NCBI GenBank assembly: GCA_036253035.1
Contig: GCA_036253035.1_4123.1
Direction: 5' to 3' (one strand)
Length of the DNA: 64,000 bases
From: a phage
Made by a program: the position numbers and the translations under genes. Positions 1-12,248 of this stretch are shown one piece after another (within the stretch, counting starts at the first letter, position 1; each line of letters begins with the position of its first letter). The notes beneath the pieces are model-generated. The model was not told the DNA's origin and did no database searches. It saw only the letters and a program-made list of their open reading frames with translations.

Positions 1-598
1 ATGAACCACCACGGATAGGATGCCCACTACCACTTAAAAAGCTTTTCGGTGTAATATCAAACTCACCAAATTCAGGATCAATAATAGTTACTTTTGTTTT
101 AGTATTAATATAATTAACTTTGCTATAATCAAAATCAATGTCAGATCTCTTTTCTTTTGCTTCTTTAATAAATTGTTCTGTTGTTTTTGTTTTTTTTACA
201 ATATCGTTATTAATAGATCTAGAAGGATGTCCACAACCACTTAAAAAGTTGGTGGGTGTAATATCGAATTCACCATATTCAGGATCAATAATAGTTACTT
301 TTGTTTTAGTATTAATATAATTAACTTTGCTATAATCAAAATCAATGTCAGATCTCTTTTCTTTTGCTTCTTTAATAAATTGTTCTGTTGTTTTTTTAGA
401 TGAACCACCACGGATAGGATGCCCACTACCACTTAAAAAGTGATTGGGTGTAATATCAAACTCACCAAATTCAGGATCAATAATAGTTACTTTTGTAAAA
501 GAATTAATATAATTAACTTTACTATAATCAAAATCAATGTCAGTTCTTTTTTCTTTTGCGTCTTTAATGAATTGTTCAGTTGTTTTTTTAGCTGGCAT
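1..598 (-). CDS. tandem-repeat protein, N-terminal part (three ~65-aa repeats; gene continues past window start)
   Basis: ATG at 598 on minus strand, frame open to position 1; repeat unit FIKxAKEKRxDIDFDYSKVNYINxxTKVTIIDPEFGEFDITP..SGxGHP; resembles nucleic-acid-binding repeat modules found with phage homing endonucleases, Cys mostly lost. Confidence 0.55.
   Translation of the reverse strand, partial: MPAKKTTEQFIKDAKEKRTDIDFDYSKVNYINSFTKVTIIDPEFGEFDITPNHFLSGSGHPIRGGSSKKTTEQFIKEAKEKRSDIDFDYSKVNYINTKTKVTIIDPEYGEFDITPTNFLSGCGHPSRSINNDIVKKTKTTEQFIKEAKEKRSDIDFDYSKVNYINTKTKVTIIDPEFGEFDITPKSFLSGSGHPIRGGS
1..598. repeat. tandem direct repeat, about 3 copies of a ~200 bp unit (coding)
   Basis: near-identical blocks starting near 1, 205 and 400 (e.g. 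ccacttaaaaag...caggatcaataatagttacttttg recurs). Confidence 0.8.
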
Positions 599-648
599 TA
601 ATTAAAAACTCCAATTTAGTACTTTAATTTCTATAAAATAATTATAGC

Positions 649-676
649 AAAAAAGGCTGACCGAAGTCAACCTTTT
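649..676 (-). terminator. rho-independent terminator (GGUUGAC-UUCG-GUCAGCC hairpin + U tract)
   Basis: plus aaaaaaGGCTGACCGAAGTCAACC; on minus strand perfect stem with one G-U pair, UUCG tetraloop, followed by U run. Confidence 0.8.
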
Positions 677-679
677 CCT

Positions 680-1156
680 TTAATAGTTATTCATTTCATC
701 TTTGATTTGTTCTTCAATTTCATTCAACATATCTTTAACGTACTGTGGACATTCAACATCAGTAAACTTATACCACGTAGGCTTCATCTGGAGCTTCTCA
801 ATCAAACGGTCACGAGACATTTTAATCTCTGACTCCGTTGGTACGTAGTCATTACAAAACTCAGCAGGGAAGCCGCTAATGTCGTTTACTTCAGTGTTTT
901 GAATCTTCATACCACGACGCAGACATTCGTTGACAATATCAATATGACGCTTCTGTAAGTACAGTAACTTGTCGTAGAAAAATGTTACATGACCTGAACC
1001 TAACAGATAAGTACTGTTAATTTTGAAATCACGTACACGCTTACGTGCTTGAACGTGTTTTTGTACAGCACCAAATACACGTGGGAGTTCACGATATTCA
1101 GCCATCAGATGTTGGTCAGCAAGTTCTTTAACGTGTACTAAGTTAATGCGTGTCAT
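680..1156 (-). CDS. denV: endonuclease V, pyrimidine-dimer DNA glycosylase
   Basis: 158 aa; [32 protein letters not shown] closely matches T4 DenV as I recall it; RBS AGAGGA. Confidence 0.85.
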
Positions 1157-1191
1157 GTATTCATCCTCTCGTTTCGATGAAATGATTATAG

Positions 1192-1217
1192 CAAAAAGGG
1201 CTGACCGAAGTCAACCC
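1192..1217 (-). terminator. rho-independent terminator, same conserved hairpin
   Basis: GGGCTGACCGAAGTCAACCC flanked by A run (plus); stop codon of 1211..1624 lies inside hairpin. Confidence 0.75.
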
Positions 1218-1624
1218 TTTTTTCTTTCAATCAAACATAGTCTACCAGAATGTACCATGCGATGGTGATTAGAACAAAGAATCATACACTTTCGAATTTC
1301 ATCTTTGATAGCATCTCGACTTTTACTGAACATAGAACTTGGTGTATGTTCTTTGGTATTAGGGTCAAGATGGTGAAAGTCTAAACATTCTGGATACTTC
1401 ATCATACAAATACTACAACCATAAAATGATTTAACTCTGGTCATGAAATCTTTATTTTTTCTTTTGATTTCTTCAAGTTTTTTGACATCAGTTTTTTTAT
1501 TTCTGGTTTTCTTACTGGTAATATTACTACAACCTTTGCATGTATTTCTATGTTTCCCAGTATCTTTTCTTATACCAAATTCACTAATGTCTTTTTCAAT
1601 ATTACACGTGATACACTTCTTCAT
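1211..1624 (-). CDS. HNH endonuclease with N-terminal Cys-rich zinc finger
   Basis: 137 aa; CxxC..CxxC then DFHHLDP..CSNHHRMVH (HNH-type His/Asn pattern). Confidence 0.65.
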   Translation of the reverse strand: MKKCITCNIEKDISEFGIRKDTGKHRNTCKGCSNITSKKTRNKKTDVKKLEEIKRKNKDFMTRVKSFYGCSICMMKYPECLDFHHLDPNTKEHTPSSMFSKSRDAIKDEIRKCMILCSNHHRMVHSGRLCLIERKKG

Positions 1625-1636
1625 TGTTTAATCCAT

Positions 1637-1924
1637 TTATTCAACAATCCCCAACTTCACAATCTCATACCCGTCCAGATAGCCGTAGGAACACTCAGGT
1701 GTTTCATAAGATGAACCATCATGGATGCCCTGGCATTGACTTTTGGAATTCTCAAGCAATCGTTGTAGTACTGATACGTCATCAAGAACGTAATACAAGT
1801 TAGCATATAGGTCAGTTACAATACAGTACTCCAACATATCAAATGTATCAATCGAAATTTCAACCTTAGCAAATCGTTTCTTTTCTTTATTATACAGTGC
1901 GTACATATTAATCTCCATAATCAA
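1637..1924 (-). CDS. hypothetical protein
   Basis: minus ORF 95 aa tiled with neighbours. Confidence 0.5.
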   Translation of the reverse strand: MIMEINMYALYNKEKKRFAKVEISIDTFDMLEYCIVTDLYANLYYVLDDVSVLQRLLENSKSQCQGIHDGSSYETPECSYGYLDGYEIVKLGIVE

Positions 1925-2324
1925 GTTTAACTAACTTACCATTCAGATAACCAAAGTTTTCTGGCTTCGCATCTGAATAAAAGAAGTCAGTACTTAACTC
2001 TGAATTCAATGCTAAAGCACACAACTCCACCCAAAATAAACCCCTATGTTGAACTGGCTTACAACGTTTCTGTACAGTTACTAGTCCAGTACATGATGAC
2101 CACAAAGTAGGACAGATACCAGTATCACTACGATTGGAGTACTGCATCCACGAACGTTCATTGAGGTTAGCTATCATCCCTGTTAAGAATAGCTTCCAAC
2201 TTTTAAAGGTTGGAATCTTGATAGCATATTCCCCAATGAGGATAACAGTTCGTGTTGCACCTTTAAAATCTATATTCATATTTTTAATTAGAAGAACACA
2301 AACCAAGTCCAGAACAAATTCCAC
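1908..2324 (-). CDS. hypothetical protein
   Basis: minus ORF 138 aa. Confidence 0.5.
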   Translation of the reverse strand: MEFVLDLVCVLLIKNMNIDFKGATRTVILIGEYAIKIPTFKSWKLFLTGMIANLNERSWMQYSNRSDTGICPTLWSSCTGLVTVQKRCKPVQHRGLFWVELCALALNSELSTDFFYSDAKPENFGYLNGKLVKLDYGD

Positions 2325-2539
2325 ATTACAAATAAAGACATAGTGGTTTTATGTACGATATCAGCAGTACTGGTCCATCCTCCACCGTGTCCTATTCCAT
2401 TTATGAATAGAACTAAGAACAAGATACCATTTACTACAATAGTACATACTAAGTACACAAATACATTCCATGCAAGTCCAGGGGATACTAAAGTAAATGG
2501 TAAAACTATTAGTAGTATTAGAACTAATAATATTTTCAT
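2288..2539 (-). CDS. small membrane protein
   Basis: 83 aa, two hydrophobic helices (ILLVLILLIVLPF.., GILFLVLFINGIG). Confidence 0.5.
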   Translation of the reverse strand: MKILLVLILLIVLPFTLVSPGLAWNVFVYLVCTIVVNGILFLVLFINGIGHGGGWTSTADIVHKTTMSLFVMWNLFWTWFVFF

Positions 2540-2578
2540 TTATCGCCTCACTTAATTAACGTGACATATCACGTAATA

Positions 2579-2755
2579 TTAGTACGAATCAGATTCCCAG
2601 TACTCGATTGCTTCTTTCAGCAATTCTTTAGCACGTTGTTTTGCAATGCGAGCGGGAAACTGATATGTGTACATTAACTGACGCTTCACTTCATTCAGTG
2701 AAAGCTGTTCATGGTACAGTGCATCCATCAGTCGATTACGAGTACGTAGTTTCAT
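2579..2755 (-). CDS. small hypothetical protein (58 aa), not in ORF track
   Basis: MKLRTRNRLMDALYHEQLSLNEVKRQ..; RBS AAGGA 6 nt upstream of ATG. Confidence 0.45.
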   Translation of the reverse strand: MKLRTRNRLMDALYHEQLSLNEVKRQLMYTYQFPARIAKQRAKELLKEAIEYWESDSY

Positions 2756-2766
2756 ATAAGTTATCC

Positions 2767-3321
2767 TTATTTCAAAGAATCATAGTAAGCAGTGTCAAAG
2801 ATTGGAGTCATAATAACATAGTCAATACGGTCAATGTAAGTTGAACTCCACATTTCTGGTTTGTCATATAACTGACGCTCGCGTTCATTCATACGAGTCA
2901 GTACTTCTTCCAATTTACTACGTGAATCCATCAATGTATTACTCGAACCATAAGTGAAGTACTCAGTCCAATGATATTCATATTCAGTACTGATAGATTG
3001 AATAGTACCATCTTTGAAATGAGCTAAGGCATAACCTTTCTCTACAAAGTTATCAGGTGGAAGAACACCATCTGGATTAGTTTTCAAGGCTTGTGCTAAC
3101 TTTTCTTTAATTTCAGTTAACGTGCATACTGAACGAATGTTCTTCAGGTTTGATACTTGAAAATCACTGTACTTTCCAAAGAAAAAGACACGCCAATCTT
3201 TAGGTTCATTATCAGATACGGTAGCATTAGGATGATGGGCGAGTAAACGAAGAAGGCCAGCTTTATGACCGTTAATGTAGATTTCATGGATGTGGTTAGC
3301 AGTTTTCTTAAAAGTAATCAT
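2767..3321 (-). CDS. hypothetical protein
   Basis: minus ORF 184 aa. Confidence 0.6.
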   Translation of the reverse strand: MITFKKTANHIHEIYINGHKAGLLRLLAHHPNATVSDNEPKDWRVFFFGKYSDFQVSNLKNIRSVCTLTEIKEKLAQALKTNPDGVLPPDNFVEKGYALAHFKDGTIQSISTEYEYHWTEYFTYGSSNTLMDSRSKLEEVLTRMNERERQLYDKPEMWSSTYIDRIDYVIMTPIFDTAYYDSLK

Positions 3322-4042: not shown

Positions 4043-4387
4043 CTATCGATTCGGCATATTCGTTCGTAGTCGCAAGAGAAATTCAACCACTGACCATGTT
4101 GTAATGAAGGCTATATAAGTTGCAAGGAATCCAGTAAGAATAAATGCAACCAGCGTACTACCATTTGGGGAATCAGTTTTAATGCCGATGACACCATCGG
4201 CTACAGTGAAACATGTAGCCATTAATGTGTAACCTACGTACAACACAAAGAAAAACTCATTCTCCATTGAAGGATAGAAACGGTTAAACACTTTATAAAA
4301 TTTAAAGTACAGTAGGATTATACCAACAAAGGCATAGAATGTAAACAGTGTTGTTATAATATATGAGATTAGGTTCAAATTATACAT
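4043..4387 (-). CDS. membrane protein, paralog 1 of 3 (4 predicted TM)
   Basis: ATG at 4387 with GGAG RBS (track ORF starts 4411 at GTG); motifs F(K/R)Y.(V/T)L..R.YP and C-terminal R..NxPE(R/K) shared with next two genes. Confidence 0.6.
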   Translation of the reverse strand: MYNLNLISYIITTLFTFYAFVGIILLYFKFYKVFNRFYPSMENEFFFVLYVGYTLMATCFTVADGVIGIKTDSPNGSTLVAFILTGFLATYIAFITTWSVVEFLLRLRTNMPNR

Positions 4388-4388
4388 A

Positions 4389-4730
4389 TCAACGCTCCGG
4401 TAGATTATCACGTAATGTTTTAATTCGATGATACATTTTCATACCAATATTACCAAAGATACCATATCCAAGTACTAAAATGTATGCAATAAGCATAGTA
4501 ATAATTACTATAGTACCAAAACTATAATGTACACTACTGATACCCATTGTAGTTTCAACGATTATTTGAGAAACTGAAAGAATCAAAAGTACAACTACAA
4601 TTGGATGATTTGGGTACATTCGGTTGAACAACGTTTTGTACTTAAAGAAGCACAGTACTCCACCGAATAAGAAGTAAACAATGTAAATGCAAGCAACAGC
4701 ATAGGCAAACATGTTAGTGTAATAAATCAT
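4389..4730 (-). CDS. membrane protein, paralog 2 of 3
   Basis: 113 aa, hydrophobic, shared motifs as above. Confidence 0.6.
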   Translation of the reverse strand: MIYYTNMFAYAVACIYIVYFLFGGVLCFFKYKTLFNRMYPNHPIVVVLLILSVSQIIVETTMGISSVHYSFGTIVIITMLIAYILVLGYGIFGNIGMKMYHRIKTLRDNLPER

Positions 4731-4739
4731 TACAAATCC

Positions 4740-5078
4740 TTACTTTTCAGGGATATTAGAACGCCATATATCAATGCGATGAACTAGTCCAAAGAACAAC
4801 CATACTGGAACGGCAGCTATCATAACAACAAATGAAAACCCAGTCAAGACCGATACCAGATTTAATTCATCAGTACTATACCCACATATCAGTACTTCTA
4901 ATATTCCCCACGTACATGCACAAAACATCAAGAATGAAATTGGGGCATCATAGTAGATACGTTCATATAAAGTAGTGTATCGGAAGAATGCAATAATGTA
5001 GCAAAACATATAATACACCCAAACCAAAGATACTACATAAAATGATACTTTGTTTATTAATTCAAAATATTGTTCCAT
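4740..5078 (-). CDS. membrane protein, paralog 3 of 3
   Basis: 112 aa, hydrophobic, shared motifs as above. Confidence 0.6.
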   Translation of the reverse strand: MEQYFELINKVSFYVVSLVWVYYMFCYIIAFFRYTTLYERIYYDAPISFLMFCACTWGILEVLICGYSTDELNLVSVLTGFSFVVMIAAVPVWLFFGLVHRIDIWRSNIPEK

Positions 5079-5423: not shown

Positions 5424-6065
5424 TCAATAAAAAACTGGATCTTCTTCAGTAACTGGTATTTCTCTACGTACATCACACGAAAGAGGATCAGTAATGAATA
5501 CATTGCCATCTTTATCCATCATGACATTACTGGAATGAATGTCTGGTACAAAACGCCCGTGAAACTCTTTCATGATGTTAGCAGCGACCGTCGCAATAGC
5601 AATCTCTTCAGAATTTCCACGCATATCATTCACTGAAGTAGCGTACTGACCAGCATGTGCATACGAATACAAATCACCAATTTTAGTACTAACAAAGTCA
5701 TCATAATTATTTTTTTGTTTAATTATAGGATAGTACTTGTCCATCTCATACCATCCAAAGTTTCCTTGTTCGTTGGCACTGTAGATCACTGGAAGAAACT
5801 TGGTTCCTGCGTTTTCAATGCAGTACTTTGCATAAGCACGAAAACCATCCCAGCGTGAAGTGGTTACTTTAAATGCACGTCCAGGATAGTTTTTATGTTC
5901 AACTACTACAGAGTACATCCCCATTCCAAGCAAAGTAAGTCCAGCAGCTTTAACTTGTGGAAAGATTACGCGTTCAGCATAAGGAATATCAAACTCCATC
6001 GCACAACGAGTTTTTGATGGACGCAAAATGTCAATTAAAGTTTTGAATATTTCTTGCTTAGTCAT
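5424..6065 (-). CDS. protein-kinase-like fold protein (putative Ser/Thr kinase)
   Basis: Gly-rich loop LGMGMYSVV, AFKV lysine motif, catalytic-loop-like DIHSSNVMMD, ITD; probable start ATG 6065 with AGGA RBS (track start 6098). Confidence 0.5.
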   Translation of the reverse strand: MTKQEIFKTLIDILRPSKTRCAMEFDIPYAERVIFPQVKAAGLTLLGMGMYSVVVEHKNYPGRAFKVTTSRWDGFRAYAKYCIENAGTKFLPVIYSANEQGNFGWYEMDKYYPIIKQKNNYDDFVSTKIGDLYSYAHAGQYATSVNDMRGNSEEIAIATVAANIMKEFHGRFVPDIHSSNVMMDKDGNVFITDPLSCDVRREIPVTEEDPVFY

Positions 6066-6101
6066 TACTTTATCCTCTGTAGTTAATATCAACATCATAA
6101 C

Positions 6102-6126
6102 AAAAAAGGCTGACCGAAGTCAACCC
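6102..6126 (-). terminator. rho-independent terminator, conserved UUCG hairpin
   Basis: aaaaaaGGCTGACCGAAGTCAACC. Confidence 0.8.
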
Positions 6127-7177: not shown

Positions 7178-7202
7178 CAAAAAAAGGCTGACCGAAGTCA
7201 AC
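7178..7202 (-). terminator. rho-independent terminator, conserved UUCG hairpin
   Basis: aaaaaaaGGCTGACCGAAGTCAACC. Confidence 0.8.
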
Positions 7203-7213
7203 CTTTAGTTTTA

Positions 7214-8798: not shown

Positions 8799-8822
8799 AG
8801 AAAAGGCTGACCGAAGTCAACC
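8799..8822 (-). terminator. rho-independent terminator, conserved UUCG hairpin
   Basis: gaaaaGGCTGACCGAAGTCAACC. Confidence 0.75.
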
Positions 8823-8980: not shown

Positions 8981-9006
8981 AACAAAGGGCTGACCTTAGT
9001 CAACCC
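8981..9006 (-). terminator. rho-independent terminator, variant of conserved hairpin
   Basis: GGGCTGACCTTAGTCAACCCC with flanking A/T runs. Confidence 0.7.
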
Positions 9007-12224: not shown

Positions 12225-12248
12225 AAAAAAGGCTGACCGAAGTCAACC
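12225..12248 (-). terminator. rho-independent terminator, conserved UUCG hairpin
   Basis: aaaaaaGGCTGACCGAAGTCAACC; stop codon of 12243..12434 embedded in hairpin. Confidence 0.75.

Follow-up and report, generated by a model that had tools for sequence, protein, structure and literature searches.

The 64,000-nucleotide stretch of phage DNA analysed here (contig GCA_036253035.1_4123.1 of GenBank assembly GCA_036253035.1, hereafter the window) opens inside a gene made of tandem repeats. This gene, at window positions 1-598, most probably represents the 5′ part of a free-standing homing endonuclease gene (HEG) from the GIY-YIG superfamily (T5orf172 branch), situated in a hyperplastic early region of an Asteriusvirus-like (121Q-type) Escherichia coli jumbo phage. 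Judged by its nearest complete orthologue, the complete protein would be about 430 amino acids (aa) long, with about five modules of about 65 aa arranged as 'beads on a string' and then a nuclease domain of about 105 aa. The gene itself appears to be an ordinary member of a recently described and already known class, the T5orf172 homing endonucleases with repeated zinc-finger-like modules, and it is the DNA-binding module that seems to be the variant part. In this region the DNA is 93-99% identical to that of E. coli jumbo phages of the 121Q (Asteriusvirus) type.

Results and discussion

The gene is visible as a 199-codon open frame on the minus strand, with its ATG start at 598-596, that runs off position 1. 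It contains three copies of a 188-nucleotide (nt) direct repeat, spaced by 192 and 207 nt and 88-93% identical at the nucleotide level to the reference copy. Tandem Repeats Finder gave 3.0 copies with 83% matches and a score of 837, which is far beyond chance. In the protein the units are 64-69 aa long and carry the strings SGSGHP, SGCGHP and SGSGHP; the three copies of about 65 aa that had been described from the letters alone, in what is called here the sequence-only reading, are therefore real features of the sequence. No further copies of the module were detected by tblastn in the window outside 1-598. The features of the gene are as follows:

1-598, minus strand: 5′ part of the putative free-standing T5orf172-type HEG, 199 codons with three tandem DUF723-like modules (from the translation, identity to the protein record P0001, PHROG matches and the orthologue in phage Turkey3).
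400-587, minus strand: module R1, first in the protein, with D, F, H and R as the former zinc-site residues (IIDPEFGEF...GHPIR) (from the repeat family, unit alignment and AlphaFold).
208-395, minus strand: module R2, with D, Y, H and R, and the string SGCGHPSR (from the repeat family and comparison with Turkey3).
1-188, minus strand: module R3, with D, F, H and R, the contig end following directly (from the repeat family).

The 199-aa fragment has 2184 homologues and matches PHROG 559 ('HNH endonuclease', E = 2e-32) and PHROG 681 ('endonuclease', E = 3e-26). Together with the unit alignment described below, this upholds the suggestion of the sequence-only reading that the units resemble modules attached to homing endonucleases. 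Pfam matches of the same fragment (Muted, EF-hand_12, Peptidase_C58 and others) were rejected as sub-threshold, spurious and driven by the repeats, and an NCBIfam search of the fragment gave nothing meaningful. The AlphaFold model of the fragment had a predicted local distance difference test (pLDDT) score of 85. Every unit adopted the same fold, a helix, a beta-hairpin and a short helix, with block pLDDT values of 87-93 for the units of the window (87-92 for R1) and weaker linkers.

At the protein level the first half of R2 is the same as the first half of R3, and 21 of the 22 codon differences from Turkey3 sit in R2, in which 162/188 nt are identical as against 187/188 in R3 and 203/203 in R1. 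The R3-like first half and the clustering of differences together suggest gene conversion between the repeats within the gene, or possibly an assembly chimera. The latter bears on a wider concern, that the triplication is in part an artefact of a collapsed or chimeric short-read repeat, so that the copy number in the window and the sequence of R2 would be unreal. We consider this very improbable: R2 does resemble an R3/R2 hybrid, and at least three independent assemblies, together with those of ECO103 4-12-1 and EC22.5-2, break in this gene, but hundreds of independent proteins, complete ones included, have such modules in tandem, and an identical 199-aa product is obtained from three contigs. 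The architecture is thus real, and the uncertainty is confined to how many copies there are and to the details of the R2 sequence.

The contig break and the complete gene

The sequence before position 1 was sought. Position 1 is a contig end, and the missing 3′ end of the gene was located at the opposite end of another contig. P0001, which is named 'partial' and is 100% identical to the 199-aa product, is encoded at 1-598 of JAYLQA010000003.1 and JAYLPG010000003.1, 350-kb contigs from E. coli O157 assemblies, the first of which shows 99.8% identity to the window across roughly the initial 1.3 kb. When the C-terminal domain of the nearest complete orthologue was used as the query of a word-indexed search, two proteins were returned. 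One was P0121 (also 'partial', 124 aa, with the same VWJ25 locus-tag prefix as P0001); its coding sequence takes up the final 375 nt of JAYLQA010000003.1 and shares the strand of the 5′ fragment. As P0001 and P0121 lie at opposite ends of one contig and on the same strand, the break at position 1 is an assembly artefact. The contig appears to be a circular assembly that was opened inside the tandem repeat, position 1 being an assembly break and no biological end, and the two 'partial' proteins at its ends are probably the products of one gene.

The nearest complete orthologue, XMR01473.1 of Turkey3, has 432 aa, made up of five units and a C-terminal domain of about 105 aa. A metagenomic relative, P0002 (73% identical), has three units and the same C-terminal domain. 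If the phage resembles Turkey3, about 326 nt are missing, corresponding to one unit and half of another. Both visible fragments, of 199 and 124 codons, are open, and the gene is apparently intact. The same gene family is also broken in the assemblies of ECO103 4-12-1 and EC22.5-2, in addition to at least three E. coli O157 assemblies. This structure explains why short-read assemblies of these phages break at this gene and should help annotators faced with 'partial' proteins at contig ends.

The C-terminal nuclease domain

An exhaustive profile search was needed to gather the family of the nuclease domain. The domain is carried by 792 cluster representatives, always at the C-terminus, in proteins of 120-590 aa. 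Nine residues are invariant in the family (Y25, K39, G41, R49, C75, E79, D98, G99 and E102 in P0121 numbering), and P0121 keeps 9/9. The catalytic Tyr, Arg and Glu are among them: no variation was seen at Y25, K39-x-G41, R49, E79 and E102 across 100-153 homologues, and P0121 has these residues too. By their order and the secondary structure, rather than by superposition, these residues would be equivalent to the GIY, YIG, Arg and Glu positions of the superfamily.

When 100 members were compared with Pfam, the only nuclease families found were T5orf172 (21/100, best E = 6e-5) and MUG113 (10/100, best E = 5e-6), both of which we take to belong to the Pfam GIY-YIG clan. The AlphaFold model of the domain (pLDDT 91.7) has the beta-beta-alpha-beta-alpha core of the GIY-YIG fold. 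By tblastn the domain is present in 319 phage records, including that of ICP1, in which ORF130, annotated 'tcgB putative homing endonuclease', is 39% identical to P0121 over 90% of the query (E = 2e-19). ICP1 Gp130 is listed as a T5orf172 HEG, and T5orf172 has been grouped with GIY-YIG (PMC8096241, PMC10448857). In 79 of 100 relatives of the nuclease domain, CapR domains take the place of the DUF4379/DUF723 type of unit. A search for a catalytic nuclease domain was therefore successful. The domain is predicted to be a T5orf172-like nuclease of the GIY-YIG superfamily and probably represents a divergent subfamily that mostly falls under the Pfam T5orf172 and MUG113 thresholds.

Replacement of the zinc site

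The nature of the repeat units was approached through their homologues. P0003, which is 51% identical to the fragment (E = 5e-77), passes the thresholds for Pfam DUF4379 (E = 8e-16), described by Pfam as a 'probable treble clef zinc finger', and DUF723 (E = 4e-9). A precomputed match to PF05265 is on record for P0001; PF05265.19 did not list the window protein at E values up to 1. By sequence homology the units are thus modules of the DUF723/DUF4379/CapR type.

An alignment of 263 units, cut from the best 120 matches, showed that the ligand columns read C-H-C-C in 211 units (C-P-x-H-G...G-C-P-x-C) and D-[YF]-[HNS]-R in 34, with almost no intermediates. The units of the window read D-F-H-R, D-Y-H-R and D-F-H-R (D-P-E-[FY]...H-P-x-R) and do not show the C-x2-H...C-x2-C arrangement of zinc ligands. 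The first Cys of 'VCIIC' does not occupy a conserved ligand column, being Cys in 124/263 units. The sequence-only reading had stated that the zinc-ligand cysteines were mostly replaced. Replacement is confirmed, but 'mostly' is not the right word: the true ligand set is C, H, C and C, and all four have been replaced.

The variant signature is common to at least 15 proteins that are 40-75% identical, and Asp at the first ligand position was seen in 16 proteins, 14 of which have Asp-type units exclusively. Behind the variant units four kinds of C-terminal domain are found: the T5orf172-like domain, a canonical MUG113-type domain (P0014, P0087), an HNH domain (P0004, P0011, P0030, P0104) and a second GIY-YIG-like type (P0006). 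A fixed four-residue signature that is widely shared and compensated is the opposite of decay. The zinc site has been swapped as a block for D-x2-[FY]...[HNS]-x2-R, and the units form a conserved sub-lineage, a stable variant rather than a decaying one.

Residual metal binding by the variant Asp and His was considered and judged unlikely, as position four is always Arg and position two is Phe or Tyr. The His, moreover, gives way to Asn or Ser in roughly 10 of 36 units, which weakens the idea further. The unit may instead fold without zinc, the Asp pairing with the Arg and the aromatic residue filling the former metal site. This is notable because changing four Cys residues of CapR to Ser abolishes its DNA binding (PMC8096241). 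We propose tentatively that the variant units are a naturally evolved, metal-independent form of the DUF723/CapR module, in which an Asp-Arg salt bridge and an aromatic residue stand in for zinc, and that this form is still a specific DNA binder and has been shuffled onto at least three nuclease domains. The proposal may well be right, though we would not lean towards it. If true, it would provide a clean natural case of the conversion of a zinc finger into a zinc-free fold, and possibly a 'beads on a string' scaffold that needs no zinc and could serve the programmable recognition of DNA. A discrete, conserved DUF723/CapR lineage that lacks the zinc ligands is unexpected, as CapR needs its Cys residues, and it offers a testable case of compensated metal-site loss.

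The denV locus in related phages

Only 11 phage records match window 1-640, compared with 64 that match window 1-3000. The repeat gene occupies a slot between denV and a conserved gene of 257 aa, and the contents of this slot differ from phage to phage. It holds an intact repeat gene in Turkey3 and is empty in fEgEco12. In 121Q genes of 119 and 64 aa adjoin denV, and further on come a gene of 79 aa and one whose 487-aa product has three CapR domains. SHEFM2K, which is the nearest relative in the flanks (99.1-99.4%), nevertheless lacks the repeat gene and has a different 474-aa 'homing endonuclease'. In WPEC5 the repeat gene is broken into two coding sequences accompanied by scattered repeat fragments. 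Outside R2 the repeat gene is almost identical to that of Turkey3 (187/188, 19/19, 203/203 and 375/375 nt, about 99.8%), and the Turkey3 flanks are more diverged (97.4% for denV and 93.4% on the right).

The neighbouring genes proposed by the sequence-only reading, denV and an HNH gene two positions away from the repeat gene, were identified by Pfam and PHROG matches:

680-1156, minus strand: denV, pyrimidine dimer DNA glycosylase, 158 aa, a conserved gene between two endonuclease genes (Pfam PF03013, Pyr_excise, E = 8.6e-15; PHROG 1183, E = 7e-59).
1211-1624, minus strand: free-standing HNH endonuclease gene, 137 aa (PHROG 2255 'HNH endonuclease', E = 2.9e-32, and four other HNH PHROGs).

The HNH gene product contains the motif 'DFHHLDPN...LCSNHHRMVH' and gives a weak match to Pfam HNH_2 (E = 0.06). 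The gene is full in 10 phage records and reduced to an 85-nt remnant in 7 more, Turkey3, SHEFM2K and WPEC5 included. The remnant allele arose by an in-frame deletion of window 1292-1609 (approximately) between two ATACACTT repeats, and its product consists of MKKCI joined to the last 22 or so residues. In 121Q window 1232-1635 is absent altogether, and with it the HNH gene. The sister contigs of the source assembly set differ likewise, L003 being without the HNH gene and L004 with it. The HNH gene thus presents a textbook series of presence, decay and absence. Presence/absence polymorphism at the same locus among close relatives is therefore seen for both the repeat gene and the HNH gene, in support of the mobile-element neighbourhood that the sequence-only reading had supposed, and the insertion polymorphism that was sought among relatives is present.

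The same reading had also called the gene a possible degenerating homing endonuclease. A decaying pseudogene, in which zinc ligands were lost through relaxed selection on a dying homing endonuclease, is improbable. The WPEC5 locus, with its two broken coding sequences and repeat fragments, some of them inverted, shows real decay of this gene; the neighbouring HNH gene is an internally deleted remnant in 7 phages; and the middle of the repeat gene is unsequenced in this phage. For this copy, however, the evidence speaks against degeneration: a single, all-or-none ligand-replacement signature that is fixed in 34 units of at least 15 proteins with almost no intermediates, 199- and 124-codon fragments that are open, and a catalytic domain with its invariants intact. 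The Turkey3 and P0002 orthologues are complete, the modules are modelled confidently by AlphaFold, and the truncation is an artefact of assembly.

Many fragments of the unit are spread over about 3 kb in WPEC5 (L001 2150-2584, 2996-3156 and 3780-5226), some inverted and inside small 'hypothetical' open reading frames (ORFs). The impression is of a graveyard for the repeat gene.

The 3′ end of denV coincides with a change in similarity. The last 24 codons or so (680-753) are not homologous to Turkey3, in which there is a blastn gap at window 677-752. The same 677-752 segment has no blastn match in WPEC5 or SHEFM2K either; it does match 121Q and fEgEco12. Among the relatives the length of DenV ranges from 144 to 171 aa. 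A mosaic boundary therefore lies at the 3′ end of denV, beside the endonuclease gene. In ECO103 4-12-1 denV is on a separate contig, L005 (OR844668.1, 1994 bp), with fragments of the repeat gene on both flanks; taking contigs L005 and L006 together, denV of this phage is bracketed by two different endonuclease genes with zinc-less modules.

Further endonuclease-like genes lie downstream of the repeat gene, beyond the contig junction (L008 691-2334, L007 674-2017 and L009 3510-4973). They encode a 547-aa protein with a weak match to DUF559 and a 447-aa protein with a CapR domain. In 121Q, gp221 has three CapR domains. These genes past the junction, together with 121Q gp221, make the denV region an endonuclease-gene island. 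The patterns at the denV locus match what has been described for T5orf172 genes (PMC10448857), namely recombination driven by repeats, islands of endonuclease genes near conserved genes and a location where exchanges have their boundaries.

Stem-loop/promoter cassettes

Within its first 12.3 kb the window has, on the minus strand, 7 copies of an 18-nt stem-loop, GGTTGACTTCGGTCAGCC, the expected number being 0.02. The TTGACT of the stem-loop is at the same time the -35 box of a sigma-70-like promoter. The corresponding features are:

655-672, 1199-1216, 6108-6125, 7186-7203, 8805-8822, 8988-9005 and 12231-12248, minus strand: copies of the stem-loop GGTTGAC-TTCG-GTCAGCC (from a motif count).
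599-679, minus strand: predicted upstream control region of the repeat gene, with GGAG at 609-612 resembling a ribosome-binding site, a promoter and the overlapping stem-loop at 655-672 (from promoter and motif scans).
1185-1216, minus strand: second stem-loop and promoter cassette, between the HNH gene and denV (from motif and promoter scans).

The predicted promoter of the repeat gene has its -35 box TTGACT at 670-665, an 18-nt spacer and a TG-extended -10 box TATAAT at 646-641, and scored 11/12 in the scan. On a sister contig the same cassette stands just 3′ of the stop codon of the repeat gene. Single genes or small groups of genes, among them the repeat gene, denV and the adjoining module, are thus framed by copies of the cassette. 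Where the source has two copies about 3 kb apart, the empty site of fEgEco12 has just one. Because the copies bracket genes and the empty site differs by one cassette, they would give each gene its own early-type transcription and would also provide homology for the gain or loss of whole cassettes. A role for the cassettes in recombination here is suggested by empty and filled sites that differ by exactly one cassette. The Asteriusvirus denV island, bounded by these cassettes, shows all stages in the life cycle of endonuclease genes: intact, internally deleted, fragmented and empty.

Assessment and proposed mechanism

The own strong, early-type predicted promoter, the visibly constrained module array and the repeated co-option of T5orf172/CapR-type proteins (PMC8096241, PMC10448857) could also be accommodated by a relative of HEGs that has been domesticated or neofunctionalised and does not home, acting as a sequence-specific repressor (precedents are CapR of PLE and I-TevI, which has a repressor role) or as a nuclease directed at host DNA, satellites or rival phages (as ICP1 Odn). 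We regard this as unlikely. Every nuclease invariant is kept, unlike in CapR, which has lost the nuclease domain. The gene is missing in most close relatives and near-identical in diverged backgrounds, which fits a selfish element and not a fixed useful function, and it clusters with other endonuclease-like genes.

Some points weigh against assignment as a homing endonuclease gene. The middle of the gene is absent from the assembly, and an internal frameshift or stop is possible there. P0121 matches MUG113 with E = 0.005 and 17.8 bits, under the cut-off of 22.3, and Foldseek searches of the PDB gave no significant match for the model of the nuclease domain or for that of the repeat array. Given the Cys requirement of CapR, it is conservation that suggests DNA binding by the Cys-free module. 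The presence/absence pattern is bounded by repeated stem-loop/promoter cassettes, and ordinary recombination between these could yield the same pattern without any endonuclease activity. Finally, homing cannot be inferred from sequence alone (PMC10448857).

If the gene is a homing endonuclease gene, as we think most probable, the following mechanism can be proposed. The modules would be zinc-free, the place of the metal being taken by an aromatic residue and a salt bridge between Asp and Arg. With each of them recognising a few base pairs, the array would have a long target. During co-infection the nuclease would cut phage genomes that lack the gene near denV, and recombinational repair would copy the gene and neighbouring markers into the cut genomes. 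The near-identical repeats would recombine among themselves, altering copy number and specificity, and the bracketing stem-loop/promoter cassettes would supply the gene's own early transcription and homology for cassette gain and loss.

Two other observations were made elsewhere in the window. Three adjacent ORFs of 112-122 aa on the minus strand at 4043-5078 (4043-4411, 4389-4730 and 4740-5078) have the look of a tandem set of paralogues; the putative product is a small membrane protein of the multi-pass type, in each case with a similar R..N.P[NE][RK] tail. A 224-aa ORF on the minus strand at 5424-6098 is the counterpart of a gene annotated as a protein kinase in 121Q and SHEFM2K, and on the sister contigs this gene matches Pfam Phage_T7_kinase.

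Comparison with known systems

The closest known systems are gp130, gp121, gp53 and gp174 of ICP1, which are T5orf172 HEGs with CapR/DUF723/DUF4379 repeats and have been described by Netter et al. 2021 (PMC8096241) and Barth et al. 2023 (PMC10448857). The repeat gene resembles them in having a C-terminal nuclease homologous to that of gp130, an N-terminal array of modules of about 65 aa, and repeats at the nucleotide level with signs of intragenic recombination. It resembles them also in its setting, as a free-standing gene beside a conserved gene, clustered with endonuclease genes and at a mosaic boundary. It differs in that every module has lost all four zinc ligands, with D, F/Y, H/N/S and R in their stead, in that the host genome is that of an E. 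coli jumbo phage of about 350 kb, and in that the nuclease domain appears to belong to a divergent subfamily. Sequence-specific DNA binding has been shown for CapR alone, where it depends on Cys (PMC8096241). I-TevI and the seg genes, GIY-YIG homing endonucleases of T4, are also among the closest known systems.

The loss of zinc ligands has a parallel in the zinc-ribbon ribosomal proteins, which are said to exist in C- and C+ forms (Makarova et al. 2001, 'Two C or not two C'). As in those proteins, a small zinc-ribbon or treble-clef module would occur in a Cys-containing and a Cys-free form with its function retained. Here, unlike there, one fixed compensatory signature (Asp...Arg and an aromatic residue) is found, in a mobile DNA-binding module that went on to spread among several nuclease partners.

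The cassettes, lastly, recall the promoter-early stem-loop (PeSL) cassettes that Arbiol et al. reportedly described in 2010 in T4-type phages. In both cases the stem-loop is conserved, shares sequence with an early sigma-70 promoter, recurs between small early genes where the genome is hyperplastic, and delimits variable gene cassettes; the two differ in sequence and in phage lineage, which here is Asteriusvirus.

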